From: a virus
Virus genome (UHGV): UHGV-0332040
Reading direction: 5' to 3' (one strand)
Length of the DNA stretch: 14,032 nucleotides
Position numbers and translations under genes: made by a program
In this document: piece after piece, positions 1 to 14,032 of the stretch
Numbering within the stretch: the stretch's first letter is position 1
Layout: each line of letters opens with the position of its first letter
The notes under the pieces: generated by a model
What the model was told of the DNA's origin: nothing
Databases searched by the model: none
What the model saw: the letters and a program-made list of their open reading frames with translations, nothing else

Positions 1-1
1 A

Positions 2-415
2 TTAGTGCGCACTCATACGCGCCATGTTCAACACCTTCCGCACAGAGGTTTCAGACACGCCAACCTTACTTGCAATGTAACGATTCTTCTGGCCTTTTGC
101 AGAGCGCTCGATAATGTCAGCGCGTACTGCCTCAGTGATCACCTTGCGGGGTCTGGCTCGATTCTTCTCGTGCCGTTCACGTTCGCGCATCCGCTCGGCC
201 ATCTTCGGCGGCAGCACAGGGGAAAGCCCACGGCTAACGCCAGAGGTGCGGGTGTCGGACGTGGCAGCTCGGGCAACGATATAAACCACTTCGTCTGGAT
301 TGAAAACGTGCTGCACACGCTCAGGGTAAATGTGGTCGCATCTACCCAGCGGCAAGGCGAAATCCGGGCGCACGTCAGCGACACGCTCCACGGCATGGAA
401 ATTACAGGTACTCAT
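2..415 (-). CDS. HTH-domain DNA-binding protein, C-terminus runs off the window (partial)
   Basis: ORF with ATG at 415 and GAGG 8 nt upstream; no stop before the window edge. Translation contains an HTH-like stretch (IIERSAKGQKNRYIASKVGVSETSVRKVL). Function not assignable from sequence alone. Confidence 0.5.
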   Translation of the reverse strand: MSTCNFHAVERVADVRPDFALPLGRCDHIYPERVQHVFNPDEVVYIVARAATSDTRTSGVSRGLSPVLPPKMAERMRERERHEKNRARPRKVITEAVRADIIERSAKGQKNRYIASKVGVSETSVRKVLNMARMSAH

Positions 416-554
416 TAGGAACCTCGGTTAATTAAAAACAGGCTTTTAGATGCCGCGCAGAATGCAGCTTGCGGGGACTCATGCGCTTAGATTGGTGTGG
501 TAGTACCGGGTTGGAGCGCACTCAGTCTTGCAGGGCGCATTCCACCGTTGGGCG

Positions 555-1241
555 TTAGCGACCAGCACGTTTGCCAGCGGAGCGCTGCGCAACCAGAGCG
601 CGGTATTGAATGTCGTACTGGCGATGGCCGGGGCCATACCCTGATTGCTGCGCCCACTGCGAAAGCTGATCATACGCTGCAATAAACTCAGCATGAGACA
701 TACCAACAGGTTGCGAGGCAGGCTGGCCGTATGGGTTCCCCTGTGATGGGACATAACCAGTCGCAGTGCCTGCGGCCATACGCTCTTGCAGATAATGAAC
801 CGCCCGCTGCATCTGCGCAGGGTCGCCAGACATAACCATCCGTTCAAGGGTTGATTGCGTCCCGGCGTCGAGCGTGCCAGCGTACTGCAACATCGCGTCA
901 ACTGTACCCTGCCCTAGCTGGCTTTCGACAGACTGGTGAAACTGCCCCATCAGCCCATGAAGTTCAGGAGTCAACTCAACAGTAGTGCCATCCTGTAATT
1001 GCAGTGTGTCGCCCACTTGTGCAGCAACATCAATCTGCTGGTCTTGCTGGTTGGCAAAGTTACTTTCGCTCCAGCTTTGATTAATGTTCGCTGGCTGCGT
1101 TTTCAGGAAATCAGCATCAGGTGTTGTCTGGTCGAATCGGCTAGCGCCGTTGTCAGCACCTACAGGTGCGGCCATGTACGGCGATTGCTGCGGCGCAGTA
1201 TCAGCGCCCGAAAGATATGGATTAACATTCTGGTCAGCCAT
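555..1241 (-). CDS. Hypothetical protein, Q/G/A-rich, 228 aa
   Basis: ATG at 1241 preceded by AGAGG SD inside the upstream gene; 2-nt gap to the upstream stop. Low-complexity Gln-rich composition; no recognisable catalytic motif. Confidence 0.55.
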   Translation of the reverse strand: MADQNVNPYLSGADTAPQQSPYMAAPVGADNGASRFDQTTPDADFLKTQPANINQSWSESNFANQQDQQIDVAAQVGDTLQLQDGTTVELTPELHGLMGQFHQSVESQLGQGTVDAMLQYAGTLDAGTQSTLERMVMSGDPAQMQRAVHYLQERMAAGTATGYVPSQGNPYGQPASQPVGMSHAEFIAAYDQLSQWAQQSGYGPGHRQYDIQYRALVAQRSAGKRAGR

Positions 1242-1243
1242 GA

Positions 1244-1483
1244 TTATGCAACCTCTTGTGATGTAACTCGGCGATGTGCCAGTTCAAGTAAAAGCATGTG
1301 TGCGTGTACGCAGCGTGGGGGAATCATCTTCTGACCGTGGTACGCCTTGCAGAGATCTTGTCTGTCAATTTGATACACACGAGCCAGATCGATTTGGCGT
1401 AGATTCAAGGCATCAGCAATGAATTTCAGTTGTTGCCCGCACTCCACCGCGCGGCGCGGCTCCATTAAAATGATGGTGCTCAT
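1244..1483 (-). CDS. Hypothetical small protein (79 aa; start revised to internal ATG)
   Basis: The track ORF 1244..1525 overlaps the upstream gene. The internal ATG at 1483 (MSTIIL...) has a GAGGA SD about 8 nt upstream and sits just after the upstream stop at 1498. Confidence 0.5.
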   Translation of the reverse strand: MSTIILMEPRRAVECGQQLKFIADALNLRQIDLARVYQIDRQDLCKAYHGQKMIPPRCVHAHMLLLELAHRRVTSQEVA

Positions 1484-1497
1484 GAAATAATCCTCAG

Positions 1498-1731
1498 TTA
1501 GATAAGGCCATGACGACGCAACCAACGTCGCTCGCCAACGGAGCCACGCGGTCGCTGCCTTGGGTTCTGGTTTGGTGCTTGGCCGGGATCAGTTCGTCCT
1601 TCCCCGGACAGGTTCTGTGTCAGCACATCCCAGCCGCGTGATTCAAACGGGGCGTATCCCTCGCGCTGTTCGTCAAGGTTCACATAGAGATCAGGGTTAA
1701 CGGCAGGGTGCAGCGGTTCGTTCTCTGCCAT
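1498..1731 (-). CDS. Hypothetical protein, 77 aa
   Basis: ATG at 1731 shares one base with the TGA stop of the upstream gene (TGATG), suggesting translational coupling. The GTG at 1734 reported by the ORF track is less likely. Confidence 0.5.
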   Translation of the reverse strand: MAENEPLHPAVNPDLYVNLDEQREGYAPFESRGWDVLTQNLSGEGRTDPGQAPNQNPRQRPRGSVGERRWLRRHGLI

Positions 1732-2291
1732 CACTTAGCCCCGAATCGCGTGTTAACATCTTCCAAAATATCGGGGTAGCTCCAGCGGTTACGCATCAGG
1801 CGCAGGACATGAGCAACAGCCTCAACAGAGATCCCAAGCTCTCCAGCGATCTCGGTTTGTTTCCAGCCGAAGCGCTCCAGCTTGTGCATCTGATCGAGGT
1901 CGGCGCTCAACAGGCGGCGCATCGTCTGAGGTTTCTCAGGCTTCGCTTTAACAGCTTTCGGCATCGGGTGGGTGTGGGCGTTGCTAAAGCGGGAATGTGC
2001 GATAGCCAGCACAGTCTCAGGGCGAATCAGCATATCGCGGGCAATCATAAACTCTGTATCGCGGTGCAGCTTGCCGGGCTTATAGCGGCTGCGGATGGCG
2101 TTGTACTCCGCCAGAGTGATATCAGCATCGTCTTTCCAATTTTCGGCCAAGTCATCGACATAGACGCCACGGATTACAGCATCAATATCGGTCAGGGTAT
2201 GACCTGTCTCCGCTGCAATCTCTTCATTGTTCTTTAGGTGCTTATGAGCCAGCGTGTTAATGCGCTGGATATCGGTAATGCTCAAAGTCAT
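1731..2291 (-). CDS. HTH protein with C-terminal sigma-70 region-4-like motif (regulator or DNA-binding packaging/replication accessory)
   Basis: 186-aa ORF; C-terminal WKQTEIAGELGISVEAVAHVLRLMRNRW resembles region-4/LuxR-type HTH. The start overlaps the upstream stop (ATGA). Confidence 0.6.
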   Translation of the reverse strand: MTLSITDIQRINTLAHKHLKNNEEIAAETGHTLTDIDAVIRGVYVDDLAENWKDDADITLAEYNAIRSRYKPGKLHRDTEFMIARDMLIRPETVLAIAHSRFSNAHTHPMPKAVKAKPEKPQTMRRLLSADLDQMHKLERFGWKQTEIAGELGISVEAVAHVLRLMRNRWSYPDILEDVNTRFGAK

Positions 2292-2464
2292 ACATTAAAC
2301 TCCGAATCAAAATTGATCTGGTCAGTAACCAGCGAATGAATCAGCGCAAGGCTGGATGCGGTATGTGTGCCCGACTTGCGGGCGTTGTCGTACATGAAGC
2401 GGGCTACACGTTGATATTTCTCCGGCAGCGTGGCGAACCATTGCCGGAACTGTTCGGGGGTCAT
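2288..2464 (-). CDS. Small hypothetical protein, 58 aa (not in supplied ORF track)
   Basis: Hand translation of the minus strand from ATG at 2464: MTPEQFRQWFATLPEKYQRVARFMYDNARKSGTHTASSLALIHSLVTDQINFDSEFNV. It fills the otherwise empty gap 2292-2460 and has ATGA overlaps with both neighbours. Confidence 0.4.
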   Translation of the reverse strand: MTPEQFRQWFATLPEKYQRVARFMYDNARKSGTHTASSLALIHSLVTDQINFDSEFNV

Positions 2465-2670
2465 TGGTCGTCATCCTCCGGGAACACGTTGTTAAAGGTT
2501 GTATCAGGCGAGTCGGCGGCGTTCTGCTTGAGGAAGTTCACGCAGGATGACAACTCGGCAGCAGCCATGCGTGACTCTCCCGCCTCGTCCTCCTTAAGCC
2601 TGCGCGTCAACGCACCCAGCAGCAGGGTTTTTAGTTCCCATGCTCCGGCTTCAAATTCAGATTTCGTCAT
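2461..2670 (-). CDS. Hypothetical small acidic protein, 69 aa
   Basis: ORF in an operon with ATGA overlaps at both ends (2667-2670 and 2461-2464). Confidence 0.5.
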   Translation of the reverse strand: MTKSEFEAGAWELKTLLLGALTRRLKEDEAGESRMAAAELSSCVNFLKQNAADSPDTTFNNVFPEDDDQ

Positions 2671-3098
2671 TGGTGGTTATCTCCAGTTAGTCCCATTGCA
2701 CGCAAGTGTTGAATGACCTCGGCATGTACTGGTTTTGGTAAAAACAGGCGACGCTGCACGGATTGAAGTATCTCGTCGCGCGTCTTGTCGGCAGGGTGAA
2801 CAGTCCCATTAAAGACCTCACGAGCCATGCGATAGGTCGGCCAAAGGCGAGCGCCATCCTCCCTGCGACGGAATCTATTCAGCACAGCGGCCAGACACTC
2901 CCACGGCTCACAGTTATTGAGCAGGCAATACCGCTGTAGCGGTGTCGTTGCCCGGCGCATGATGGCTTCACGATTAAGGGTCTGAATATGACGTTCGGCC
3001 AGTCCGTCGAATGAATAGCCGTTCAAAGCAAAGGCGAGCTGCGCATTAAGCAGGGCGTCAGAACGCCCCGCACGATGCAGTGCGGTTTCATCAGGCAT
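2667..3098 (-). CDS. Hypothetical protein, 143 aa
   Basis: ORF on the same strand about 43 nt downstream of the helicase stop; ATGA overlap with the next gene. No recognisable motif. Confidence 0.55.
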   Translation of the reverse strand: MPDETALHRAGRSDALLNAQLAFALNGYSFDGLAERHIQTLNREAIMRRATTPLQRYCLLNNCEPWECLAAVLNRFRRREDGARLWPTYRMAREVFNGTVHPADKTRDEILQSVQRRLFLPKPVHAEVIQHLRAMGLTGDNHQ

Positions 3099-3141
3099 AA
3101 GGATTCTCCAGAAAGGAATTTAAACAGGCGAGCTGGTCAGC

Positions 3142-5031
3142 TCAGAGGAAGCGGGAGATGTAACCCCAATTGCAGTTTTCAGGGCGGTACAACGCTGCCA
3201 GCTCATCAGGTACACCGGACGGCACCGGGGCAGAGTCGGCGTCATAGGTGATGGGGTCGCCATACAGAGCCAACGATGACCACAGCAGAAAAGCACGGGC
3301 AGGTTGACCGTCACGCCCGGCACGTCCGATCATCTGAACTAAATCGGGCAGGTCTTCGGGAACATAAGTGACAATTACGTTACGCACGCCAGAGATATCA
3401 GCCCCCAGCCCGAAGGCTTTAGTAGCAATCAGAACCGCGCCGGGCGTGCTGGCAAACCACGCAGCGTTAGCGTGACGCTGGTCGCGGCTCAGTCGCTCAA
3501 CGTCAGAATGGTAAGGCCGGGCGCGGTCTCCCAGTTCGTTGAGATACGCATACAGCATCTTGATACTGTCCACCATCACCAGCGTCTTCTCATCCAGCGG
3601 GAGGGCATCGACCAGACCAACGGCAGCCCGGCGCGTAGTTGCGCACTGCTGAACAGGAATAAGCTGGATGTTTTCACGGGCAGCACTGGCGCGGTAGGTG
3701 AGGAACTCGCCACGACAGCCAAGCTCTTTCATCAAGCCAGACTCATCACCTTTTCGCAGGGTCGCAGTAAACGCGCACCGCTGAGCATCCGGGAAGGCAT
3801 TTTTCAGGGTGTGTTTCATTGCAGGGAAAGCGTCCCGGAACTCCCATTCATCAACGGTATGAACCTCGTCAATGATAAATCTGTCCACACCAGCGGCCAT
3901 CAGCGCAGCCAGCACCTGATTGCCCGGCACCAGATGCTCAGGTGAAACTACGGCAACGTGGAAAGCGCCAGCAGCCAACCCCGCAAGCTGTTGCGCATTG
4001 CGTCGCCTCGGCAGCTTGTCGCCAAAGGCAACAGCGTGAACGCCAGTTTCTAGCAACTGCTGTAACACCTGCTGCTTGATGGTGTTTGTAGGCACAACAA
4101 TAACGGTCAGACCGTCATCAGAATCAGATTCAAATTGCAGGGCATAGGTGAATGCAGCCGTCTTTCCGTACCCGGTTGGCAGTACGGCCAATACATCGCG
4201 GTCACGGGCAAATACGGCGGCAGCTACGTCCTGCTGGCCGGGTCTCCAGTCTCTGCCATCTAGCGGTGGTAACGGTACGAATGCCGGGCGGTCGCATTGC
4301 TCCAGCTCGCGGAACCTGTACGGCGCGGTAACCAGCGGCGGGATGGACGGCGGCAGGCCAGCACCCCCAACGTCACAATGCAGATTCAGCGTATTGAATT
4401 TATCATCCGTGGGTTTCAGCTCACCGCACCACAACTGACGGAAAGCCGGGCAGTCACCCAGTCGCGTAAAGTCAGCATGGCGCATAGCTTCCAGCTTGCT
4501 CATGCCGCGACTGATACGACGCACGATCTTCTCATCGCAAATCAGAAACTCACGGCAGGCTTTGAGGAAGGCATTCTGCCCGGTTGTCGCTTCCGGGATG
4601 GAGTGCTCGCGCGGTTTAAGCGCAGCGTCATCAACGCGAACGCCGGGGAAATCTGGCGGCAGCGGCTCGGCGTACCGGGCAGGCTTTTTGTTTAGCCACA
4701 TCTCCAGCTCAGCGCGGCGGCAGTGGATTGCATCGCCCGGCTGGATAATCTGGCGCAACCCGGCATCAGCGCGGCGGGAATGTCGCTTGCGGCCAATTCC
4801 ATTCGCCTCTTTCCATTCACGGAACGACATAACTGAACCATCTGCATTGTAGAAATACTGCCCGGAAACGGTGTTAAGCGCTGCCTTCACTGGTCGCTGT
4901 TTAACAGGGCATAACTTGGAATGAGGTATAACGATCTTATCCGCAACCAGTTGCTGAGCATCCGCAGGCTCGGTGTTCAGCGGTTCGGCGTCAGCGGCCA
5001 GCGTAAGCAAGCGGTTTAAATTGGTTGGCAT
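3142..5031 (-). CDS. RecQ-like superfamily-2 DNA helicase with an N-terminal domain of about 260 aa of unknown function
   Basis: 629-aa ORF. Helicase motifs read directly from the translation: motif I LPTGYGKT, motif Ia-like IVVPTNTIKQQV, motif II IIDEVHTVDEWEFRDAF (DExH with the RecQ-type W..FR signature), motif III FTAT, motif VI QMIGRAGRDG. GGAG SD upstream of ATG 5031. Confidence 0.85.
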   Translation of the reverse strand: MPTNLNRLLTLAADAEPLNTEPADAQQLVADKIVIPHSKLCPVKQRPVKAALNTVSGQYFYNADGSVMSFREWKEANGIGRKRHSRRADAGLRQIIQPGDAIHCRRAELEMWLNKKPARYAEPLPPDFPGVRVDDAALKPREHSIPEATTGQNAFLKACREFLICDEKIVRRISRGMSKLEAMRHADFTRLGDCPAFRQLWCGELKPTDDKFNTLNLHCDVGGAGLPPSIPPLVTAPYRFRELEQCDRPAFVPLPPLDGRDWRPGQQDVAAAVFARDRDVLAVLPTGYGKTAAFTYALQFESDSDDGLTVIVVPTNTIKQQVLQQLLETGVHAVAFGDKLPRRRNAQQLAGLAAGAFHVAVVSPEHLVPGNQVLAALMAAGVDRFIIDEVHTVDEWEFRDAFPAMKHTLKNAFPDAQRCAFTATLRKGDESGLMKELGCRGEFLTYRASAARENIQLIPVQQCATTRRAAVGLVDALPLDEKTLVMVDSIKMLYAYLNELGDRARPYHSDVERLSRDQRHANAAWFASTPGAVLIATKAFGLGADISGVRNVIVTYVPEDLPDLVQMIGRAGRDGQPARAFLLWSSLALYGDPITYDADSAPVPSGVPDELAALYRPENCNWGYISRFL

Positions 5032-5052
5032 GGTGCAAACTCCAGAGAAGGA

Positions 5053-5490
5053 TTAAATACTACGCGCCCAAGCTAAATCTTCGGGTGTCCGACTTTCGAT
5101 TAACGCTAACTGCCAGCGTAAGTAATCCTCATGTTCTTTGGTGTATCGGGGAATACCTATAGGATTTTTCACAGCGTCCGGGTTAGTCCTCGCGACTTCC
5201 CTGCAATCTCGGTCGAAAGCCCAGCGGGCAACTTCCACCGATTCGTAATCCGTAAATCGGTACGGCCTTGTGCGGGAACGTACACGCCAGACAACTTGCC
5301 CTAATTCGTGGATGTATATGCCGCAAAGTTCATCCGGGCTTGGGTGATACAATGGCTCCCCATAATTCTGGCGCATGAACTTCACAAACTTTTGATTGCG
5401 GCGGGCACGCCGTGCTTTTTCGCGTCGCTCCTCGGCTTCATACTCTTTTTGAATGGCGGCACGGTCTACCGGGATAAGTGTTTTGCTCAT
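5053..5490 (-). CDS. Hypothetical protein, 145 aa (first gene of the operon; start revised)
   Basis: The track ORF 5053..5667 has no SD at its first ATG. The internal ATG at 5490 (MSKTLIPV...) has GGAGA 7 nt upstream. Arg/Lys-rich N-terminal region. Confidence 0.55.
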   Translation of the reverse strand: MSKTLIPVDRAAIQKEYEAEERREKARRARRNQKFVKFMRQNYGEPLYHPSPDELCGIYIHELGQVVWRVRSRTRPYRFTDYESVEVARWAFDRDCREVARTNPDAVKNPIGIPRYTKEHEDYLRWQLALIESRTPEDLAWARSI

Positions 5491-5557
5491 ACAGTGATCT
5501 CCAGAAATTAATGTGAGTTTGGAACGGGGCGCAGGACGGAAGCGCCGGGAGTGTGGC

Positions 5558-5756
5558 AGTCTGTCCTCCTTAGTAGTTACCATCATTGCAATGGCGTCGG
5601 AGTTCTGTCTCTCTTTAGTAGTGATCTTCATCCAGTAATTTGGATTAAATGCAGACACGGCGGGCATTGCAGCGAGATGGAGAGTAGGCGGGCTTGCGGT
5701 TTCAGTCTGCCTTAGTACAAGTTTCTAGTGGTCGGTAGCCTTTCCCTTATTAGTAG
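5558..5756. repeat. Iteron/operator-like direct repeats with TTAGTA(G/C) core in the operon leader
   Basis: Plus-strand copies: AGTCTGTCCTCCTTAGTAG (5558-5576), GTTCTGTCTCTCTTTAGTAG (5602-5621), AGTCTGCCTTAGTAC (5704-5718), plus a core-only TTAGTAG at 5750-5756. All lie upstream of the operon start at 5490. Confidence 0.5.
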
Positions 5757-6024
5757 CTCTCATTTATCCGGGGCTTGTCTTCCCACACAGTAGCCGTCTT
5801 CTAAAGCAACCACACCACAATCCACTACTGGCAAGGAGTTAGCAGACACGGTGATGTAGGCTACTCAAGTGTGGATTTGTAGGCGTTTTATAGTATCTGT
5901 CCTTCTTATTAGACACCTTTAAATTTCATTAATAAATACAGTTAGTTAAACGGTTATCTTTATTACTTATAAATTTCACAGATCAATAAATTAAAATTGA
6001 TCGGAATTATCAGCTTTAATTTTC

Positions 6025-6053
6025 TTGACAGCTATTTGTATAATGGTTTTAAG
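6025..6053 (+). promoter_or_regulatory. Sigma-70 promoter-like hexamers in an AT-rich island (TTGACA 6025-6030; perfect TATAAT 6039-6044)
   Basis: Both consensus hexamers are present but only 8 bp apart, so they cannot belong to one promoter. TTGACA could pair with TTTAAG (6048-6053, 17-bp spacer), or TATAAT with a weak -35 upstream. No plus-strand ORF follows. Confidence 0.25.
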
Positions 6054-6222
6054 AAGTTGTATCGGAGTGAGCGACTGGCAGTGAGCGTAGCGAACGATAA
6101 GCCAGTCGGCGAAGAACGAAGAGTATGAGATGACTTGTCATCGAATACGATGAGTGATTGAGCGGTACGAACGGAGATACGCTGTATAACAGTTAGAACA
6201 GTTAACAAGCTGATTAATGCTT

Positions 6223-6387
6223 TCAATGATTATCTGAATCAGTGTTATCAATTCCGAAATAACTCTTCCTCTCCTGTATTGATTCAATCATTTCTTTCAT
6301 TTCAAGAATCACTACCAGCTCAGCTAATAACCGTCTCAGTTCAACATTTGAATCATTAGCACGACACTTATTTTCTGAGTATTCCAT
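6223..6387 (-). CDS. Small hypothetical protein, 54 aa, in AT-rich island (not in supplied ORF track)
   Basis: ATG at 6387 with GGGAG SD 8 nt upstream; translation MEYSENKCRANDSNVELRRLLAELVVILEMKEMIESIQERKSYFGIDNTDSDNH; AT-rich codons unlike the neighbouring genes. Confidence 0.3.
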   Translation of the reverse strand: MEYSENKCRANDSNVELRRLLAELVVILEMKEMIESIQERKSYFGIDNTDSDNH

Positions 6388-6479
6388 ACGGTCAACTCCC
6401 TACGGTATAAGTCCATTCCAATCCGTTCACAGATTACATTGCTGAATGATCATCAGACAAGTGGCAGTCATCATCACCA

Positions 6480-6800
6480 AGTTAGAGTCGTCTCGCTACA
6501 TATCCCCGCCGGATTGCCAGCGCGGCTAACACGGTTGTGAGGAGCGCCGAGCATCACAGCGGACGCAGGCCGATGAACGAGCCGTAGGTGAGTGAAAGCG
6601 GACTCGCGGACGCGAGAAGCGCAGCAGCAGGCGGCGACTGATAAACGAGCCAGACAGGTGAGTGCAAGCAGGCGTAAGCACTGCACCGTTGAGAGGTGTG
6701 GAGACGGCGGAACGTCTCCGCGTTAGGGAGGTGGATTTGGGGAGGATGTGCAAGGCACACCTCGCTCCACCCACGGGGTGTCGGTGGGTAGGGGTATAAC
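6480..6800 (+). other. T-depleted, purine-rich non-coding block with tandem repeats and GC hairpins (candidate ncRNA or protein-binding array)
   Basis: Stops in all plus frames; the minus frames are open only because that strand is A-poor. Hand count: 9 T in 6541-6660. Tandem repeat pair 6572-6599 and 6640-6669; palindrome CTCGCG-GA-CGCGAG 6603-6616; hairpins at 6700-6719 and 6769-6789. Confidence 0.35.
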
Positions 6801-6910
6801 GCTAATTGGTTAAGTGTACACATGTACGCTGAAATCATTAAAAGCCTATAGAAACAGCATGTAACCCAGCACCACGACATAACCAATTATCGTTGAACCC
6901 CCTCCCCGGC

Positions 6911-7246
6911 CCCACCCGGAATTTTTCAGTGATGAATCACTTCACAATCTGATCTCGATGTTCATCGTCTGGCACGGCTAAAGCCCCGCCATCTCTTCAC
7001 ATCGAGAGCCGCAAGTAATACGAAAATACATTATAAATCATAGCATTACGACATCGCGCATAACATAACGCTCTGAAATTAATACGAAAGCTGTAGGTCA
7101 TCCATCACCCACAGCCCAGTAACGGCCAGTGCTGGCACCTCATTTGGCTGTAGGTCAGCCCGACCCCACCGCCCAATAACCCCACCCGGCAGCAATGGCA
7201 CGGCACCAGACGCAGCGTAACGATCTCTGAGTTGATAAATCACTTA
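6911..7246. repeat. Cluster of paired short repeats in the C+A-rich non-coding block 3' of the serine recombinase gene
   Basis: CCCACCCGG at 6911-6919 and 7181-7189; TAATACGAAA at 7016-7025 and 7080-7089; GCTGTAGGTCA at 7090-7100 and 7147-7157; palindrome-containing TGATGAATCACTT at 6930-6942 and TGATAAATCACTT at 7234-7246. Confidence 0.45.
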
Positions 7247-7329
7247 GGGCAGCGTAACCCACACCCAACGGCTCACATCCTCGCAGAGAGGCTCACAGAT
7301 CACCTCGTGACATTTCACAGCATCAACCC

Positions 7330-7953
7330 TCAGACGCTGGCAGCCAGCTCACGCTTAATGCGGTAGAACGTTGCCCGGCTTATCCCGGCAGCTTTCATGA
7401 TGCGCTCCGGTTTCACACCCTGCGCCAGCATTTCCCTGACGGTCTCGCGAGCGGCGGCATCCTTCTGACTCCCACGATAAAGCCCCTCAGCTTTGGCTCG
7501 TTCAATGCCCTGCCGCTGGCGCATCAGTCGCGTCTCGTAGTCCACGCGGGCCATTGTAGCGAGGATATCGATCAGCATTGCGTTAACGGCTCTGAGGATG
7601 CCGCTGGTTAGCTCTGACGCGGTTTCGTTCAGCAACTGCCACGAGGTTGGCAGGTCAACGGCGACGATCACCAGCCCCTTATCCTGAATCCTCTGTTTCA
7701 GTGTCGCCCATTCCTTTTGTGTCAGGCGGCTTAGCCTGTCTATGCTTTCGACAAGTAGAACGTCGCCAGCCTCCGCCTCACCCAGCAGGCGCATCAGTTC
7801 AGGACGCTCCAGCCGCGCACCGCTGGCGTTCTCGATGTATCGCGCAGCAATAGACCAACCACGCTCATTAGCGAAATCCTCCAGCGCAGGAACGGCACGG
7901 TCGGCGTGTTGCTCGGCGGTGGATGCCCTGGCATACAGACGAACGTTATTCAT
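7330..7953 (-). CDS. Small serine recombinase (resolvase/invertase family)
   Basis: 207-aa ORF with GGAGGG SD. N-terminal catalytic motif YARASTAEQ (Ser11), LLVESIDRLSRL, and a C-terminal HTH (ISRATFYRIKRELA), typical of resolvase/Hin-Gin-type enzymes. Confidence 0.85.
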   Translation of the reverse strand: MNNVRLYARASTAEQHADRAVPALEDFANERGWSIAARYIENASGARLERPELMRLLGEAEAGDVLLVESIDRLSRLTQKEWATLKQRIQDKGLVIVAVDLPTSWQLLNETASELTSGILRAVNAMLIDILATMARVDYETRLMRQRQGIERAKAEGLYRGSQKDAAARETVREMLAQGVKPERIMKAAGISRATFYRIKRELAASV

Positions 7954-8536
7954 GATTCACCCTCCAAATCTCAGTGAAGTATCACATCCCGACATGAAGG
8001 AGATCACACTTAAAAACCGTGGTCAATAGGGTATAAAATAAATTTGATTGCGACAGCTTAGGCACATCACAATGCGGTATACCCGGATGAGACAGAGACA
8101 GCCAGCGGCAGACTGGCACCGAGTCACAGCAAAACCCCGGCGCACCCAGCGAACGCAGCGCAAAGCGCACACAGGAGATCAGCACGGCACCGCCACGATC
8201 TCGAAATCACAAAGGCGTTGAATCAAACATTGCAACCGCAGCAGTAACCAGCCAGCATTTCGCGCCTGCAACGGTTGTCTCGGATGAGCAAAATCTTAGG
8301 GTTTTCTCAGCGACCCCTGACGCGCGGGCACGCACATGCGCACGGGGGCGCGGGCGAGCTATACAGTTGAGGGAGGGGCAACCATAAGCGTGCAATTTTT
8401 CAAGCCGGGACTTTTAACAGTGGGATTGTGAGGCTATTTTGCATTCAGAGAGTGAGGCTGTAGGGTAGCTCCCCTTGAACCAGATAACGCTAAGCTAACC
8501 ATTTTCCCCACTGCTTAAGCCACTTTGCGTTGACGT

Positions 8537-9037
8537 TCAGCACCCCACAGCAGCATTATCCGGCATCAGAAACGGAATCAGTTTAGTATCACCATGCACA
8601 TATAACGGGTGCATAGGCTCTCCCGTTGCGTTAATTTTAAAACACTTCGTATCTACAGGAAGGAACGCCCGTACTACGGCAGAGCGTTTCAGGTGCCGCC
8701 CTTCATTCCCCCACGCAGCAACAACGATACCAGCACCAGCTATCAATTCTGCCAGATACTTATCATTATCCGCCCCGACAGGCTCCGGGAATCTCATCAT
8801 CTCAAAGCGGTCAGTACACACATACGCGAACAGGTTCGCGATACGTACCCCCCCGAAGCCCCAGCTCTGCGCAAATGAGATACAACGTTTCAGTGTGGGG
8901 TCGTCAAGCTCTGCGTCCGCATACGATGGATTCAAACCGATGAAAAGAGCATAAGGCTTTGCAGCGTCCCACGTTCTGGAAATAGCGTAACGGTACTTCC
9001 CGCACACAGAGAAGATCGCGTCTTTGTTCACATCCAT
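8537..9037 (-). CDS. DUF1643-like protein, 166 aa
   Basis: Translation carries the motif block I recall as characteristic of DUF1643 (CGKYRY...FIGLNPSYADAELDDPTLKRCISFAQSWGFGG). Assignment is from memory of the family signature, not from a search. GAGGG SD upstream of ATG 9037. Confidence 0.55.
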   Translation of the reverse strand: MDVNKDAIFSVCGKYRYAISRTWDAAKPYALFIGLNPSYADAELDDPTLKRCISFAQSWGFGGVRIANLFAYVCTDRFEMMRFPEPVGADNDKYLAELIAGAGIVVAAWGNEGRHLKRSAVVRAFLPVDTKCFKINATGEPMHPLYVHGDTKLIPFLMPDNAAVGC

Positions 9038-9039
9038 GA

Positions 9040-9180
9040 TTAACCCTCTTCACTACGTTTATCATCCCGCATCGAGTCAATGAAGTCGCGTTGCTCCTGC
9101 GTCAGTTCCAGATTTTCTAACAACTTGTCTAATTCTATTTCGGCGGATTCTTGCTTCTGCAAACGCTCTTTGTCAGCCAT
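9040..9180 (-). CDS. Small acidic hypothetical protein, 46 aa, translationally coupled to the DUF1643 gene (not in supplied ORF track)
   Basis: ATG at 9180; translation MADKERLQKQESAEIELDKLLENLELTQEQRDFIDSMRDDKRSEEG; its TAA stop lies 2 nt upstream of the DUF1643 ATG, with that gene's SD inside its 3' end. Confidence 0.35.
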   Translation of the reverse strand: MADKERLQKQESAEIELDKLLENLELTQEQRDFIDSMRDDKRSEEG

Positions 9181-9671
9181 GCCAAGCCCCACAAGATTAG
9201 GATTAATCTTAGGCTACAAAATGATCAATACAAATGCAACGGATTGTTATTTATTACAGATACAAGAATTAAGGGGGAAATAATCAGGAGGGGATGCCCC
9301 GGACTGCCAGCACAGAACCGGGGCGAATGCGGACGGAGCCACCCATCAGCCGAATAACCATAGCCTATTTTCTGGCAATAGCAAGCCATAAGCGCCGTGT
9401 TGGGTACACTCAGCAGCAGCGCCATCGGCGCATCATCATCTCAATCTTGTACAATCATCCGTTCACTTATCGAGTACCGTTCATTTATGGCACGGTGAAC
9501 ACCACGGCAGAGCCAGCCCCTTTCCCGGACTGGTTAGGCTTCCCAACATCAGCTCGTTTATCCGTGGCGTGTCATCACGACAGGCGGGAACCGGACACCG
9601 CGCTAAGTGCGGAACAGATGAATGTTTCAGGGAATCATGCCGGGTGAACGGCTTTCAGTTCATGTTGGACT

Positions 9672-9920
9672 ATCGCGGTATGACCAGTGGAACGACCGCC
9701 AGCGCTTTGCTAAACTCCCTGTTCACCGTTCAACAAATCGCGGCAACTATCAGGGTAAATAGCGGTACTTTGGTCACATCACCTTAGAGCTAACTCATTG
9801 AGTTATAAGGCTTTTAATGGGCTGGAGCGGGCGAAGGGAATCGAACCCTCATAGCTAACCCATTGAATTGTGAACCAAAATAAGTAATCGCGGTACTTAT
9901 CCCGGTAGTTGGTAGCGGTA
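9672..9920. repeat. Candidate integrase arm-type repeats (ATCGCGGTA / GCGGTACTT family) on both sides of the att core
   Basis: ATCGCGGTA 9672-9680; ATCGCGGCA 9737-9745; GCGGTACTT 9762-9770; ATCGCGGTACTT 9887-9898; GCGGTA 9915-9920. Three copies lie left of the core and two lie between the core and the int start. Confidence 0.4.
9823..9850 (-). other. att core: 28-nt 3' end of a tRNA-Gly gene (T-arm, acceptor 3' strand, U discriminator, CCA); not a complete tRNA
   Basis: Minus strand reads GAGGGTTCGATTCCCTTCGCCCGCTCCA, which matches my recollection of the 3' end of enterobacterial tRNA-Gly(CCC) glyU. No D-arm or anticodon arm is recognisable 5' of it, so it is a fragment. Confidence 0.65.
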
Positions 9921-9938
9921 GATTACAAGGTAATTACC

Positions 9939-11165
9939 ATGCCAATCAAGAAGACTTCTTATCTTTATGCAAACAAAGATGGGATATTCATCTTTCAAAT
10001 CTTTATCCCGGTGTACATGCGCCACTTATGGCACGGGCGGCGCTCACTCAAGAAATCGACAGGCACGCGGGACATCATGCAAGCTCGCATATTCCGTGAC
10101 CAATACTTATTAGAGTTCCGAAAGCTCCAGCTCATGATGAAACCGGATAACCCTATAAACCGGATTCATTCTGCTATTTCAGATCTTCACTTACTGGCGG
10201 GAATATCCAGCGACATTACCGCGCCCGTAACTACTCCAGCAGAACGAGGGAAACCAGCGTCGCCAAAATTGACAGATGTCAGTAAAGAATATGCAGAGCA
10301 ATACAAAGATCGGCGCTCTTATTCCACATTGAGTAAATCCGCTCGCGCTGTATCAGCATTCACTAAATCAACTAAGCGCCCAACAATTACAATAAACGGA
10401 ATCGGGCGGCGGCTCGTCTCTGACTTTCTGAAAGCGAACCAAGATAAGTTTTCCCGGCAGACGATGCAAAACTGGTTAACTTGCTTAGGTACGCTGTACG
10501 ACTTCGCCCGGCGTAAATATGACAATATCGCCCCTGATAATCCCTTTCACGGCCACAATCTGGAAGCCCGTCAGACAAACGAAAGTTACCAGCCGTTTGA
10601 ACCGCACCAGCTACAGACATTAACAAAAAAGGCAGGTGACGAAATAAGGGATGTAATAATAATCGGGCTGTATTCCGGGATGCGTCTTGATGAAATAGCC
10701 AGCATTAAACGGGATGAGGTTGTCACCATCGACGGCGTGCGGTGTTTCTATGTCAGTAAATCAAAAACAAAGGCGGGTATAAGGCATGTCCCTGTACACT
10801 CGCTGTTATTTGACATTGTTGATAAATACCTCGCGCAAAACAGCGGGGAGTACCTGCTCCCCCAATCCAACAAAATTAAACGCGCGGATGGTAAACGTGG
10901 GCCGTGGTATTCTCAGACATTTACCCGCTTACGTCGCCGGGTACTACCAACAGCCACAGAGCGCCAGTGTTTCCACTCCCTGCGTGGTCACTTCATCACC
11001 TGCTTAGACCGGGCAGGTGTACCAGAACAGCGCATAGGAGCTATTACCGGGCATACAGAGAAAAAGGCAAAGACGGAAGCATTTAAAACGTACAGCCAAG
11101 GGGCTGGGATGAAAGAACTATCTGAATACGTAGAGCTGGTAAGTTATCCAGAACTTGAATCATAA
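9939..11165 (+). CDS. int: Tyrosine recombinase / phage integrase
   Basis: 408 aa from ATG 9939 (AAGG SD 9 nt upstream); the track start at 9909 is a TTG. C-terminal catalytic region has GMRLDE (Arg), HSLRGHFIT (H-x-x-R...H) and a C-terminal Tyr in FKTYSQG. Lies 89 nt from the tRNA-derived core. Confidence 0.85.
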   Translation: MPIKKTSYLYANKDGIFIFQIFIPVYMRHLWHGRRSLKKSTGTRDIMQARIFRDQYLLEFRKLQLMMKPDNPINRIHSAISDLHLLAGISSDITAPVTTPAERGKPASPKLTDVSKEYAEQYKDRRSYSTLSKSARAVSAFTKSTKRPTITINGIGRRLVSDFLKANQDKFSRQTMQNWLTCLGTLYDFARRKYDNIAPDNPFHGHNLEARQTNESYQPFEPHQLQTLTKKAGDEIRDVIIIGLYSGMRLDEIASIKRDEVVTIDGVRCFYVSKSKTKAGIRHVPVHSLLFDIVDKYLAQNSGEYLLPQSNKIKRADGKRGPWYSQTFTRLRRRVLPTATERQCFHSLRGHFITCLDRAGVPEQRIGAITGHTEKKAKTEAFKTYSQGAGMKELSEYVELVSYPELES

Positions 11166-11167
11166 TT

Positions 11168-11596
11168 TCAGGCAGGGTAAATAATCCCCAGCCCGCGATA
11201 CTGGCGGCGGTATTCTCTGACCAGAGCATCCGCCGTCGCCCTCGGCAGCTTCGCCATATGCCCGGTACGATAGCCACCCTCGGCAGAATTCGCTGCACGA
11301 TGTACAACAGCCCGCACGCGCCCGGTTCTGTGGTCGTGGTCGAGGGTCGTGCTGCTGAACGCAACAGCCCGCCCGGTAACGGCACACCGTCGATACTGAT
11401 AATTCCACAGAAAGCAACGCACCGCAGCCACGTCAGCACGGCGCAACTCCAGTCGCCCTGAACCATTCAACAGGAGGCGATACACATCGTCGAATGCAGC
11501 AGCGTTTCTAACGCGCTCAGCCAGCGGCATATTGCCAAGGAACTCCAGATAATCCCGCATTGCTTTTCTTAAAAGTTGGTCTGTCCGTGTAACCAT
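11168..11596 (-). CDS. Endonuclease VII-like (recombination endonuclease VII family, HNH-type) protein
   Basis: 142-aa ORF with GGAGA SD; motif CAVTGR...LDHDHRTGRVRAVVHRAAN resembles the DHDH-x-TG-x-VRG core of T4 EndoVII-family proteins. Confidence 0.55.
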   Translation of the reverse strand: MVTRTDQLLRKAMRDYLEFLGNMPLAERVRNAAAFDDVYRLLLNGSGRLELRRADVAAVRCFLWNYQYRRCAVTGRAVAFSSTTLDHDHRTGRVRAVVHRAANSAEGGYRTGHMAKLPRATADALVREYRRQYRGLGIIYPA

Positions 11597-11868
11597 GATT
11601 CAAAGTCTCCATTGTCAGACACAGCCCGCTTGCAGGCTTCGTATTCTTCGCGCTGGCGTTGGCATACCAGAGCATAAAGCTCATCAGCCACCGCATTTAC
11701 GCGCCTATCACTGATACCGTTGCGACGCATCTGCCCCAGCAGCTTACGAAATTCAGCCTCAAGCTCAGGCTCTCCTGTATCCATTACCCACTGTTTCAAG
11801 TCAGCGAGTGCGCCAGTCATTGGCGGCGGCTCGATGTACCGCCACCTTAATTTAATCGTCAAAGCCAT
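11569..11868 (-). CDS. Hypothetical protein, 99 aa (start revised to second ATG)
   Basis: AGAGGA SD directly abuts the first ATG at 11874, so the second ATG at 11868, 6 nt further, is the likelier start. Overlaps both neighbours on the same strand. Confidence 0.5.
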   Translation of the reverse strand: MALTIKLRWRYIEPPPMTGALADLKQWVMDTGEPELEAEFRKLLGQMRRNGISDRRVNAVADELYALVCQRQREEYEACKRAVSDNGDFESWLHGQTNF

Positions 11869-12277
11869 AAGCATTCCTCTTTATATCGTTTGCTCTCGCT
11901 TCACTGGCTTGTTTAAGCGTCATTCCTTCGATAGCTATATCCAGCAGTTCCTTTTGCTTACCAGCCAATCGCAAGGCGCTGTCTCTCCAGCAAAGCAGAA
12001 AGAAGATTGTCAGCACCTGTTTACTCAATCCATCCAGAAGATCGCCAAGTCCTTGATCCAGCAGACAGGCACGCCATGCAGCAGCGTGCTGCGTCATAGC
12101 ACCGACTATCGGGATAGGTGCGCCAAGCATCGTCGCAAGCTGACTCATAACACTATTAGCATCGCCCGGATGCAGCCGGGGAATAGTCATGCGGCCAGCC
12201 TGCGCCAACAGCTCGGCGTACCTCTGGCGACGTGGGTCATCACATGCCAGCGGTTTAATTGGCTTTTCATCAGCCAT
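11852..12277 (-). CDS. Hypothetical protein, 141 aa
   Basis: ATG at 12277 with GGAGG SD 9 nt upstream, immediately after the TAA of the HNH gene. Confidence 0.55.
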   Translation of the reverse strand: MADEKPIKPLACDDPRRQRYAELLAQAGRMTIPRLHPGDANSVMSQLATMLGAPIPIVGAMTQHAAAWRACLLDQGLGDLLDGLSKQVLTIFFLLCWRDSALRLAGKQKELLDIAIEGMTLKQASEARANDIKRNAYGFDD

Positions 12278-12295
12278 ATATGGAACCTCCGAGGA

Positions 12296-12823
12296 TTAGG
12301 CAGCCTGCAACAAATCGGCTGGCGTTGAGGGATGGTATCTGGCTTTAGCTTTTAGATAGGCAGCACGCGCCGCCGCTTCGGTTGTGAACAAGCCAAGGTG
12401 ATGGCGTACACCATTAACGCGAATGTAAGCCTCCCATTTACCAGAACAAGAATGACGGCTATATCCCTTCGCTTTGCGGTAGTTGTGCTGATTCTCCTGC
12501 GGTGTAACAGCGCGGAGGTTGCCCGGTCGATTATCGGCACGTACAGCGTTAATGTGGTCGATTTGCAGACCGTCAGGGATACCACCATTAGCAATGATGA
12601 AGGCCACGCGATGCGCATAAATCGAGTGCGTCCTGCCGTCGATGCGGACAGACACGCGCCGATACCCGGCGCTGTCCGTTGCGGTGTCAGCCAGTTCCCC
12701 GGCCTCAGCATAAATCCGCTTGTTGATTCCAATTCGGTCTACTGCATGGAACAGGCGGCCAGTCTCCGCATCGTATCGAAATAAAGAGCGTAGCAGCTCA
12801 GGGGCGTAAGCATCATTAACCAT
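12296..12823 (-). CDS. HNH homing-type endonuclease with AP2-like DNA-binding domain
   Basis: 175-aa ORF with GGAGGGG SD. HNH_3-type block GYRRVSVRIDGRTHSIYAHRVAFIIANGGIPDGLQIDHINAVRADNRPGNLRAVTPQENQHN, and an AP2-like C-terminal block SGKWEAYIRVNGVRHHLGLFTTEAAARAAYLKAKARYH. Confidence 0.8.
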   Translation of the reverse strand: MVNDAYAPELLRSLFRYDAETGRLFHAVDRIGINKRIYAEAGELADTATDSAGYRRVSVRIDGRTHSIYAHRVAFIIANGGIPDGLQIDHINAVRADNRPGNLRAVTPQENQHNYRKAKGYSRHSCSGKWEAYIRVNGVRHHLGLFTTEAAARAAYLKAKARYHPSTPADLLQAA

Positions 12824-12839
12824 GACTCAGCCCCTCCAG

Positions 12840-13835
12840 TTACACAGCTTGTCGGAAATTGATAACGCAGTCAGGGCGGCGCAGTCCAACATTGAACAGG
12901 CGATATGAGTCCATCACCATCGTCATTTCGCGCTCATCATCCCACTGGCGATTGATAACGCTCTGCGCTTCGACTGTCACAAGTACAGACGCAGGCCGGA
13001 ACAGCGTCGCCCGCGTCAGCGCTTCCTCTGAGGTAACGTCATAATCAGCGCCCAGTTCATGCCCGGTAATAGCTTCCTGCGGGTAACTGTTCAGCTCAAT
13101 GACTCGTACCCCAGCGACATAGCCAACTCGACGCCATGCGTAATCGTTGCCACTATCCCGGCTGTAACGGACGTTCATCAGCTTCTTATGTTCCATCAGG
13201 ATGCTGAACCAAGCCGGGTCGATAAGCAGTACCAGCTCGGCCACCGGAATATCTTTCTCAGTGAGAAAGCGATTAGCAGCCGCTTTTACGACGTGAGCCA
13301 ATTCGTTTGCGGCGTCCTCTTCGCTCCCCGCTGTCAGGTCGAGCGATACAACGTTATCCGTTAGTGGGTTAAACGTTGGTTGCAGTGTCGGCGGCGGTAC
13401 AAAGTCAGTCGCTTTGATTAGCTGGATGGTGTGCGCTTCGTCGTAGAATTTAGCGTGAGCAGTACCCATATTGCGGCTCAGCTCTGCGCGAAAGGTGGGC
13501 GCTGTCCAGTCGTCCTGATAGTCAATCGGAATGCGGATATAGCTCAGCGTATCCACAGAGATAATCAGCTTATCCGACTTAACAGCGGTAGGCTCCAGCG
13601 ATTGCCCTGCGGTTCTGCCCTTCACCTCCAGATCACCACTCAGGCGATCAATGCGGTATTGGTTGCTGGCTTTCAGCGGCCTGTATGTAGACAGCCCCTC
13701 TGCCAGAAATACGGATTTGGACTCTAAACGGGTCTGGACATCCCGGTCATAAGCCTCGATGTGAATATCATTGTCGGATTCCACCCCGCCATAATGTGGG
13801 CGAAACAGATCGGGACTGTACGAAGTATCAGTCAT
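12840..13835 (-). CDS. Major capsid protein, T7 gp10-like (HK97-fold family); start revised
   Basis: 331 aa from ATG 13835 (AGGAG SD 8 nt upstream). Several blocks align by eye with my recollection of T7 gp10A: KLIISVDTLSYIRIPIDYQD vs KVITIDGLLTADVLIYDIED, LLIDPAWFSIL vs FYCDPDSYSAIL, C-terminal YRLFNVGLRRPDCVINF vs YAMGHGGLRPEAAGAVVF. Not search-verified. Confidence 0.55.
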   Translation of the reverse strand: MTDTSYSPDLFRPHYGGVESDNDIHIEAYDRDVQTRLESKSVFLAEGLSTYRPLKASNQYRIDRLSGDLEVKGRTAGQSLEPTAVKSDKLIISVDTLSYIRIPIDYQDDWTAPTFRAELSRNMGTAHAKFYDEAHTIQLIKATDFVPPPTLQPTFNPLTDNVVSLDLTAGSEEDAANELAHVVKAAANRFLTEKDIPVAELVLLIDPAWFSILMEHKKLMNVRYSRDSGNDYAWRRVGYVAGVRVIELNSYPQEAITGHELGADYDVTSEEALTRATLFRPASVLVTVEAQSVINRQWDDEREMTMVMDSYRLFNVGLRRPDCVINFRQAV

Positions 13836-14032
13836 AAACAAAACTCCTACGTAGGTTGATGAAGCCCGCGCCATCGTCATGGCACAGACGTGCGGAATCC
13901 TCCCGCCGAGGCAGGATTCAGAACGGTATCGATTAAAGGGATGAGGTGCCCCGAAATGGGCGTTTTGAGGCCAGAGCTGGCGCGGTTCTCAGAGGTTAGT
14001 GCGCGTGAAGTAAGGCGAACGTATTACCTTGC

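Follow-up and report, generated by a model that had tools for sequence, protein, structure and literature searches.

RESULTS

An AT-rich segment in the largest non-coding region of a satellite island

The DNA analyzed here is the virus genome UHGV-0332040, a stretch of 14,032 nucleotides that we call the window throughout. Judged by its gene set, the window is a ~14-kb phage-satellite island resembling the phage-inducible chromosomal islands (PICIs). Our subject is an AT-rich stretch of this island in which an original prediction had placed promoter-like hexamers facing a small open reading frame (ORF). The stretch lies in 5491-7329, a 1.8-kb interval, longer than any other non-coding region of the element, that separates the gene of a serine recombinase from the operon of a RecQ-like helicase (Table 1). 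The layout is the same in all relatives: a helicase operon on the minus strand, a long non-coding gap (~1.3-2.3 kb in annotated E. coli loci), and a serine recombinase gene on the minus strand. Whatever gene the helicase operon opens with, the same conserved leader of 51 nt (5497-5547), which contains a covarying hairpin, stands ahead of it. The 145-aa ORF that stands between leader and helicase gene in the window is limited to some relatives (the window, L004, L007, L011, and L018; relatives are referred to by such locus numbers).

The compositional claim was borne out. The G+C content is 0.35-0.39 over 5700-6450 versus 0.5-0.6 around it, and the lowest 300-nt value of the entire 14 kb (0.34, against a mean of 0.529 and a standard deviation of 0.052) was found in the segment starting at 5862. 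The truly AT-rich piece is 5909-6050, with a G+C content of 0.225 over 142 bp. The adjoining 6051-6215 is 46% G+C and 64% purine, and 6216-6390 is 34% G+C and pyrimidine-rich on the plus strand, so that purines prevail on the coding strand of the small ORF. The AT-rich "island" is best explained as a composite of three parts, namely a control region (5909-6050), a structured-RNA gene, and a lineage-limited ORF of 54 aa.

The control region carries a direct repeat, an inverted repeat (Table 1), and two GATC sites; reading of the sequence at 5981-5993 further gave two GATC-headed AT-rich 13-mers and an IHF-like ATCAANNNNTTR match. It is adjoined by the sole multi-copy repeat family of the window, a pyrimidine tract followed by TTAGTAG, whose copies start near 5560, 5605, 5702, 5741, 5776, and 5896. 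The copies are spaced by 45, 97, 39, 35, and 120 nt, and their sequences drift among relatives. The pentamer AGTAG occurs five times on the plus strand within 5572-5789, compared with eight times in the entire window. On the minus strand the motif reads CTACTAAGGAGG-like, with a perfect AAGGAGG resembling a Shine-Dalgarno (SD) sequence, and lies in the leader of the helicase operon. Copies of ACAGTTAG are present at 6189-6205. The TTAGTAG-type repeats could be iterons, operators, or RNA motifs.

Table 1. Features of the window and of the alternative module (positions refer to the window unless another sequence is named)
Feature	Position	Strand	Remarks
TTAGTAG-type repeats	5560-5917	+	pyrimidine tract + TTAGTAG, ~20-28 nt; 5-6 dispersed same-orientation copies
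Conserved AT-rich control region	5909-6050	none	composition, conservation, repeats
24-nt direct repeat	5915-5938 / 5965-5988		within control region
7-bp inverted repeat GATCAAT / ATTGATC	5981-5987 / 5996-6002		within control region
Candidate sigma-70 promoter	6016-6044	+	TTAATT (6016-6021), 17-nt spacer, TATAAT (6039-6044)
TTGACA	6025-6030	+	perfect; invariant in relatives; 8 nt upstream of TATAAT
Candidate structured non-coding RNA core	6051-6193	+	RNAalifold consensus and covariation; 3' end undefined
P1	6059-6063 / 6176-6180	+	
P2 hairpin	6072-6079 / 6101-6108	+	
P3, long irregular hairpin	6109-6133 / 6138-6163	+	CUUG tetraloop cap 6134-6137
P4	6181-6185 / 6189-6193	+	
54-aa ORF (MEYSENKCRANDSNVELRRLLAELVVILEMKEMIESIQERKSYFGIDNTDSDNH)	6223-6387	-	ATG start; SD GGGAG 6400-6396, 8 nt ahead of ATG
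Convergent promoter candidate	7013-7117	-	hairpin, TATAAT, flanking repeats; downstream of recombinase gene
Terminator-like hairpin	7117-7088	-	directly after recombinase gene; equivalent in L004
TATAAT	7035-7030	-	between TTTCGTATTA repeats 7089-7077 and 7025-7013
SF2 helicase gene	3142-5031	-	629 aa; RecQ-like over residues 260-586
145-aa ORF	5053-5490	-	between leader and helicase gene
Serine recombinase/invertase gene	7330-7953	-	207 aa
DUF1643 protein gene	8537-9037		
Tyrosine integrase gene	9909-11165	+	
Endonuclease VII-domain protein, HNH endonuclease, capsid protein, scaffold-like protein, several small ORFs		-	
E2348/69-type module	L028 3780-4210 (E. coli O127:H6 E2348/69, NC_011601 4851443-4851873)		unannotated in RefSeq

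Conservation peaks in the promoter-like region and over the next ~145 nt

The AT-rich stretch is carried by 4 of 5426 complete E. coli genomes. DNA similarity searches of phage and plasmid collections found no carrier of it, and pattern scans of viral contigs gave no match. A scan with a 20-nt pattern recovered more copies, from Trabulsiella odontotermitis, three Enterobacter genomes or metagenome-assembled genomes, and about ten metagenome contigs. One of the Enterobacter carriers is Enterobacter bugandensis 22S01078-8. The conservation analysis covered 15 elements, drawn from E. coli, Enterobacter, Trabulsiella, and metagenomes.

The non-coding gap is mosaic among these relatives. Mean pairwise identity was 97% over 5974-6050, 94.5% over 6051-6193, and 91% over 5909-5973, falling to 62-80% in the flanks (5497-5908 and 6194-6345). 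Nearly all bases of 5974-6193 are invariant, those of TTGACA and TATAAT included. From this identity profile, the best conserved part of the locus is the promoter-like region together with ~145 nt downstream of it, and not the ORF.

The conserved core folds into a covarying, strand-specific structure

RNAalifold, applied to 11 distinct sequences of 6051-6215, returned a three-way junction (P1-P3) followed by a hairpin (P4), which together span 6059-6193 and begin 8 nt past the predicted transcription start site. All 40 pairs were kept in all 11 sequences (440 of 440 cells paired, none broken), and compensatory double changes were found in four of them: 6075/6105 (C-G to U-A in four sequences), 6077/6103 (G-C to A-U in L018), 6114/6158 (G.U to U-A), and 6117/6154 (C-G to U-A). 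In addition, 6115/6156 becomes a G-C pair in the haplotype that we call allele B. These double changes arose in no fewer than two distinct variant lineages, namely allele B and L018. The covariation score was not reached by any of 500 shuffles, and pairing fell to 14-45% when the 3' partners were slid. In the first 143 alignment columns, 13 were counted by eye as variable, and about 10 of these belong to compensated pairs.

The fold also has a preferred strand. The consensus energy was -36.3 kcal/mol on the plus strand and -26.7 kcal/mol on the minus strand, where P2 and the tip of P3 form too while the covarying part of P3 is lost; the two G.U pairs, 6114.6158 and 6181.6193, are C.A on that strand. 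From these models, the core is a structured nucleic acid that is best read as a plus-strand RNA.

A scan of the whole window against Rfam 15 at E<=1 gave no match, with 5000-7300 blank on both strands, and the core is a candidate RNA motif absent from Rfam. When a covariance model built from the core was compared with other loci, including those of the alternative module described below, it matched the window alone. Two ORFs that overlap the core were rejected as coding sequences from the alignment: the 64-aa minus-strand ORF (6032-6226) has an in-frame TAG and lacks a start codon in most relatives, and the 43-aa plus-strand ORF (5997-6128) has no SD and acquires stop codons in allele B.

A candidate promoter with an invariant TATAAT precedes the core

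Both plus-strand hexamers of the original prediction, TATAAT and TTGACA, are present, but they do not make up a promoter pair. They are 8 nt apart instead of 16-18, so that TTGACA is not usable as the -35 of this TATAAT, and a consensus scan reports neither. A relaxed scan combined the TATAAT with TTAATT, at 9 of 12 matches, as a candidate sigma-70 promoter. Its -10 is the canonical one, a perfect TATAAT that is invariant in the 15 relatives, and its spacing predicts a transcription start at ~6051.

Perfect hexamers are unremarkable by count: TATAAT occurs twice in the window (4.8 expected) and TTGACA four times (6.8 expected), and ~0.6 TATAAT per strand would be expected in a 540-nt stretch, as estimated from local base composition. 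What makes the TATAAT at 6039-6044 stand out is its invariance. Both perfect TATAAT of the window sit within 5491-7329 and face each other, one on the plus strand at 6039 and one on the minus strand at 7035-7030, ~1 kb apart.

The 54-aa ORF is the least conserved part of the locus

The 54-aa minus-strand ORF and its good SD were found as predicted. It is not unannotated as had been supposed, since RefSeq lists its product in E. coli 5735 as the hypothetical protein WP_165689111.1, and its conservation in close relatives, on which the proposal had been made to depend, turned out to be poor. It is intact in 5 of the 15 elements (the window, L001, L009, L025, and L027), while in the other ten the start is missing together with window 6340-6484 (up to 6614 in some). 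These ten keep ~25 in-frame codons (LLKQLIAEIVMIIEIEERIELLQGE*) with no usable start. The intact copies differ at 2 nt, one synonymous and one not, too few to inform on coding selection. A search of 5.8 billion proteins with the 54-aa product returned three near-identical clusters only, and neither this ORF nor the 145-aa ORF has a family in Pfam, PHROGs, or NCBIfam. Inspection of the product showed a charged sequence that looks helical and lacks a hydrophobic segment. The ORF is probably a real, lineage-restricted, and dispensable small gene; because it is the least conserved part, the arrangement is not built around it.

A type I toxin-antitoxin pair was rejected: the product is not hydrophobic, the core ends at 6193, before the ORF stop at 6223, and most carriers of the RNA core lack the ORF. 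Similar small ORFs lie elsewhere. A ~50-aa ORF at L001 13136-13288 (minus strand) is 33% identical to the 54-aa ORF over 51 aa, with shared ELRxLL...IES motifs, and a ~50-aa ORF at window 9040-9192 (minus strand) resembles that of L001 by eye. Both stand directly upstream of a cargo gene, which encodes a DUF1643 protein in the window and a 136-aa hypothetical protein in E. coli 5735.

An alternative module occupies the same position in E. coli E2348/69

At the same position, 54 E. coli genomes, including that of the enteropathogenic E. coli (EPEC) strain E2348/69, carry an alternative and largely unrelated module. Its parts come in the order of a last TTAGTAG repeat, a short AT stretch, a plus-strand TATAAT/GATAAT (kATAAT), and a conserved purine-rich stretch. 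The latter folds at -48.4 kcal/mol on the plus strand versus -37.5 kcal/mol on the minus strand. The module holds several CAGTAG repeats and GGA motifs, with AGTAG repeats on both sides of the short AT stretch.

Common to both module types is GTATCG...AGATACGC, which corresponds to the P1 arms of the window type. The arms are separated by two nt (CT) in the E2348/69 type and enclose P2 and P3 in the window type. In the E2348/69 type, however, the GAUAC arm is paired by RNAalifold in another way, and we therefore treat the idea that helices were inserted into a hairpin loop as no more than a lead. Among the entries listed in the published tables of RNA interaction by ligation and sequencing (RIL-seq) for EPEC E2348/69, none has coordinates starting 48514-48519. 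A preprint on the small RNA (sRNA) Pas proved unrelated.

A purine-rich block and a convergent promoter candidate lie toward the recombinase gene

Beyond the small ORF, 6450-6900 is strongly purine-rich on the plus strand, with the top 150-nt purine fraction of the window (0.67) at ~6560. Within it, 6500-6800 is 62% purine and 38% G and contains no convincing ORF, and a degenerate ~68-nt repeat was seen at 6557-6583/6625-6651 and 6586-6599/6656-6669. Consensus structure was weak and ambiguous between strands in 6470-6640; it was likewise weak in the repeat region and leader at 5497-5915 (-17 kcal/mol over 459 columns). The idea of a CsrA sponge was dropped, as the GGA count in 6500-6800 is by estimate close to the expectation from base composition. 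At longer range, an inverted repeat with G-rich and C-rich arms pairs 6730-6753 with 6893-6916 and 6786-6815 with 6877-6906. In relatives of the L005 type the G-rich arm differs but keeps its complementarity to the C-rich arm, which is conserved; relatives of the L009 type are without a G-rich arm.

Right behind the recombinase gene lies the block 6899-7157, which 58 E. coli genomes share at 85-97% identity and which contains the second TATAAT, downstream of a terminator-like hairpin and between repeats (Table 1). The block is probably the promoter/operator of the main operon of the satellite, and its arrangement suggests that a minus-strand promoter would send a ~1.5-kb leader through the AT-rich stretch into the helicase operon. 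Other observations in this part of the gap are an 8-bp inverted repeat, CTCGATGT/ACATCGAG, at ~6955-7007; a 34-nt direct repeat (7090-7123/7147-7180, 79%) that duplicates the terminator-like hairpin; and 176 extra nt (7158-7333) that are absent from L003, L005, and L006.

Rearrangements at the locus and the host element

In E. coli VREC0864 (L002, at 11254-11560), the gap is 350 nt long, and the equivalent of about window 6510-7366 is missing. The promoter block and the RNA cassette are probably both lacking there. The serine recombinase of L002 has an altered C-terminus (…ISRATVLARQSTRRG), fused to downstream sequence. We rejected this short gap as proof of a dispensable island, since L002, with its fused recombinase C-terminus, has arisen by deletion. 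An inverted repeat of 21 nt (76%) flanks 6017-6206. An invertible promoter segment of the Hin/Gin type was rejected too: the orientation of the segment relative to both flanks is the same in all 15 relatives. In the metagenome contig OGTM01000575.1 (L016), an end at 1-60 (GGAAGGTGCGAACAAG...), which we take to resemble the inverted repeat of the IS5 family, is inserted at CTAG directly after the conserved core (~6205), interrupting the region downstream of the candidate RNA.

The window is ~99% identical to an island in E. coli strain 5735 (NZ_CP154887; L001) and circularly permuted with respect to this integrated copy: window 1-8243 corresponds to L001 3601-11837 and window 10433-14032 to L001 1-3600, so the integrase end (10433-14032) comes after the recombinase/DUF1643 end. 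A 15-mer resembling the T arm of tRNA or tmRNA, AGGGUUCGAUUCCCU, lies at 9849-9835 (region 9624-9853), immediately ahead of the integrase ORF. The permutation and this 15-mer suggest an attP-type junction, the element being excised or in tandem. No portal and no large terminase were found among the window ORFs scanned, and for this reason we did not file the island under the capsid-forming PICIs (cf-PICIs) or the P4-like satellites.

DISCUSSION

A candidate RNA cassette opposite the helicase operon

We tentatively favor the reading that the AT-rich stretch holds a cassette of promoter and structured non-coding RNA directed against the helicase operon, acting in cis by antisense pairing or convergent transcription and exchangeable as an immunity-like module; in our judgment this is nearly, though not quite, an even call. 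A constitutive plus-strand RNA would start just downstream of the invariant TATAAT. Because no intrinsic terminator is predicted before 7723, it could be long, reading across the small ORF into the purine-rich block, and the G>C composition of such a transcript would disfavor Rho. Minus-strand transcripts from the side of the TATAAT at 7035-7030 would head for the helicase operon and meet the plus-strand promoter head-on. The plus-strand RNA might then act in cis on these transcripts by antisense pairing, by interference from convergent transcription, or by both, and the outcome would be a satellite kept quiet until induction. It speaks for this reading, in which the cassette would behave as an exchangeable regulatory unit, that another module, mostly unrelated in sequence, shows the same architecture at the same position. 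Of the plus-strand transcript or non-coding RNA 5' end that had originally been proposed to run from the hexamers, the invariant TATAAT and the covarying plus-strand fold lend indirect support to the core of the idea, whereas TTGACA as a -35 and an arrangement centered on the ORF have to be given up.

Several observations weigh against such a cassette. No canonical -35 lies at 16-18 nt from the TATAAT, the best hexamer there, TTAATT, matching at three of six positions, and the consensus scan called no promoter at 6016-6044; a weak -35 is compatible with activity but lowers the claim to a candidate promoter. The minus-strand promoters required for a sense/antisense pair were likewise weak matches in the relaxed scan. 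The covariation consists of few events among closely related sequences, and a single haplotype, allele B, accounts for three of the four covarying pairs. As a single sequence, 6051-6260 folds only mildly better than dinucleotide shuffles (z-score -1.2), and the 145-nt core scored z -1.8 against mononucleotide shuffles (-3.2 for allele B). Conservation of the stems would also fit single-stranded-DNA hairpins at an origin. On the plus strand of 6044-7723 no intrinsic terminator was predicted, which leaves the length and class of the RNA undefined; a terminator of the kind seen in Hfq-type sRNAs (GC hairpin and U tract) is lacking, the relatives having weak hairpins only. Finally, when the element was searched by duplex energy for sites on which the RNA could act in trans, none scored above shuffled controls.

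The strongest competitor, which we nevertheless consider unlikely on balance, is a satellite replication origin. The TTAGTAG-type repeats would then be iterons for an island initiator and 5909-6050 the unwinding element, with the promoter and hairpins serving transcriptional activation, R-loop priming, or as single-stranded-DNA primosome signals. It fits an origin that the lowest G+C content of the element occurs right beside the only multi-copy repeats, and an intergenic origin would most plausibly lie here, because the ORF map shows the 1.8-kb gap to be the largest non-coding region. The E2348/69-type module likewise has AGTAG repeats flanking a short AT stretch, the ACAGTTAG copies could be counted with the iterons, and the GATC-headed 13-mers and the IHF-like match would fit an origin as well. 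The plus strand downstream is purine-rich and G-clustered, and such composition favors R-loops. However, the module type does not track the helicase, which counts against an origin with cognate helicase specificity: L010 and L014 have 70% N-terminal helicase identity yet a window-type module that is 98.6% identical, whereas L007 has 89% N-terminal helicase identity yet the other module type. Moreover, the repeat spacing is not helically phased and the repeats drift between relatives, no good DnaA box is present (at most 6 of 9 by eye), and a strand-asymmetric fold with G.U pairs suits RNA better than duplex DNA.

A bolder proposal, which we rate as rather unlikely, is that this family of satellite-like islands of Enterobacteriaceae has interchangeable RNA cassettes between recombinase and helicase. 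They would be of at least two types, that of the window and that of E2348/69, each with a promoter of its own and a structured, purine-rich plus-strand RNA, and would serve as determinants of RNA immunity or specificity, or else as primer or R-loop RNAs in the manner of ColE1 and T4, at a transcription-primed origin serviced by the RecQ-like helicase.

It appears improbable that the conserved structure instead works in cis on the minus strand, within the helicase-operon leader, for example as a Rho attenuator with a Rho-utilization (rut) region or as a protein- or ligand-responsive element, with the plus-strand TATAAT being incidental. The minus strand of 6050-6900 is pyrimidine-rich with C>G (plus-strand GC skew +0.15 to +0.21), which is the composition of Rho-utilization sites. 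Upstream on this strand, the TATAAT at 7035-7030 follows the terminator-like hairpin; P2 and the P3 tip form on the minus strand as well, and a hairpin at ~5527-5545, just ahead of the first gene, covaries. Against this, the consensus fold is ~10 kcal/mol weaker on the minus strand, with the covarying part of P3 lost and two G.U pairs turned into C.A; the 97%-identical region upstream of the plus-strand TATAAT would go unexplained, and the adjacent leader (5497-5915) is almost without consensus structure.

Least probable of the readings considered is that nothing here is regulatory, the stretch being acquired AT-rich DNA with the 54-aa gene as its functional unit, chance hexamers, and identity due to recent recombinational spread: perfect hexamers are indeed expected at about the observed frequency in AT-rich DNA, the ORF has a good SD, is annotated, and has weakly similar small ORFs nearby (in L001 and at window 9040-9192), and the region is visibly mosaic, but the ORF is the least conserved part, with its start missing in 10 of 15 elements, the non-coding core is the best conserved, core substitutions are overwhelmingly pair-compensated, which recent spread alone does not predict, and a second module of the same layout occupies the same position.

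Comparison with known systems

Phage satellites influence phage-host dynamics and gene transfer. To our knowledge, silencing and induction of satellites of E. coli and Enterobacter are understood for few types, which use protein repressors, AlpA-type activators, or the CI RNA of P4. The satellite family has a member in the model EPEC strain E2348/69, and its cassette is put forward here as a candidate for control by RNA or for replication primed by RNA; if this is true, immunity by RNA cassettes or an RNA-primed origin would be a logic undescribed for PICI-type satellites.

In P4, immunity is RNA-based: the structured CI RNA, encoded upstream of the replication (helicase/primase) operon, controls transcription into that operon. 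The locus studied here is alike in having a small structured RNA, as predicted, in the untranslated region upstream of a satellite replication operon. The P4 CI RNA, however, is cut from a same-strand leader and pairs with seqA and seqC, whereas here the RNA would come from the opposite strand and its own candidate promoter; it has no match in Rfam, families of the C4/CI type included, and no seqA/seqC-like repeats complementary to it were found.

Cis-antisense RNAs or face-to-face promoters are known from R1 CopA/CopT, ColE1 RNA I/RNA II, pCF10 prgQ/prgX, P22 sar, and coliphage 186 pR/pL. Shared with these systems are a short structured RNA that a constitutive promoter directs against the leader of replication or lytic genes, convergent promoters, and an exchangeable specificity module, all of them predicted in our case. 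The differences are that the possible overlap here is ~1 kb, that no kissing-loop target or terminator is defined, and that the host element is a phage satellite.

The origins of Staphylococcus aureus pathogenicity islands (SaPIs) and other PICIs resemble the locus in having short repeats of the same orientation beside an AT-rich stretch near the satellite helicase gene. Here the repeats lie upstream of the helicase operon and not 3' of it, their pattern is irregular, module type varies independently of the helicase, and the region holds a strand-specific, covarying fold.

SviR, an sRNA of the Vibrio cholerae satellite PLE, is reported to act in trans on satellite and helper transcripts, and provides a precedent for a regulatory small RNA encoded by a phage satellite (bioRxiv 10.1101/2022.04.08.487710). 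It differs from the present candidate in belonging to an unrelated satellite family and host and in acting in trans, no trans targets having been found here within the element; the Rfam scan, on which the comparison of the two RNAs is based, was negative. Judged from its sequence features, the candidate RNA described here would belong to a known kind, the regulatory non-coding RNAs of mobile elements, as a new and unverified member from a poorly studied satellite family.

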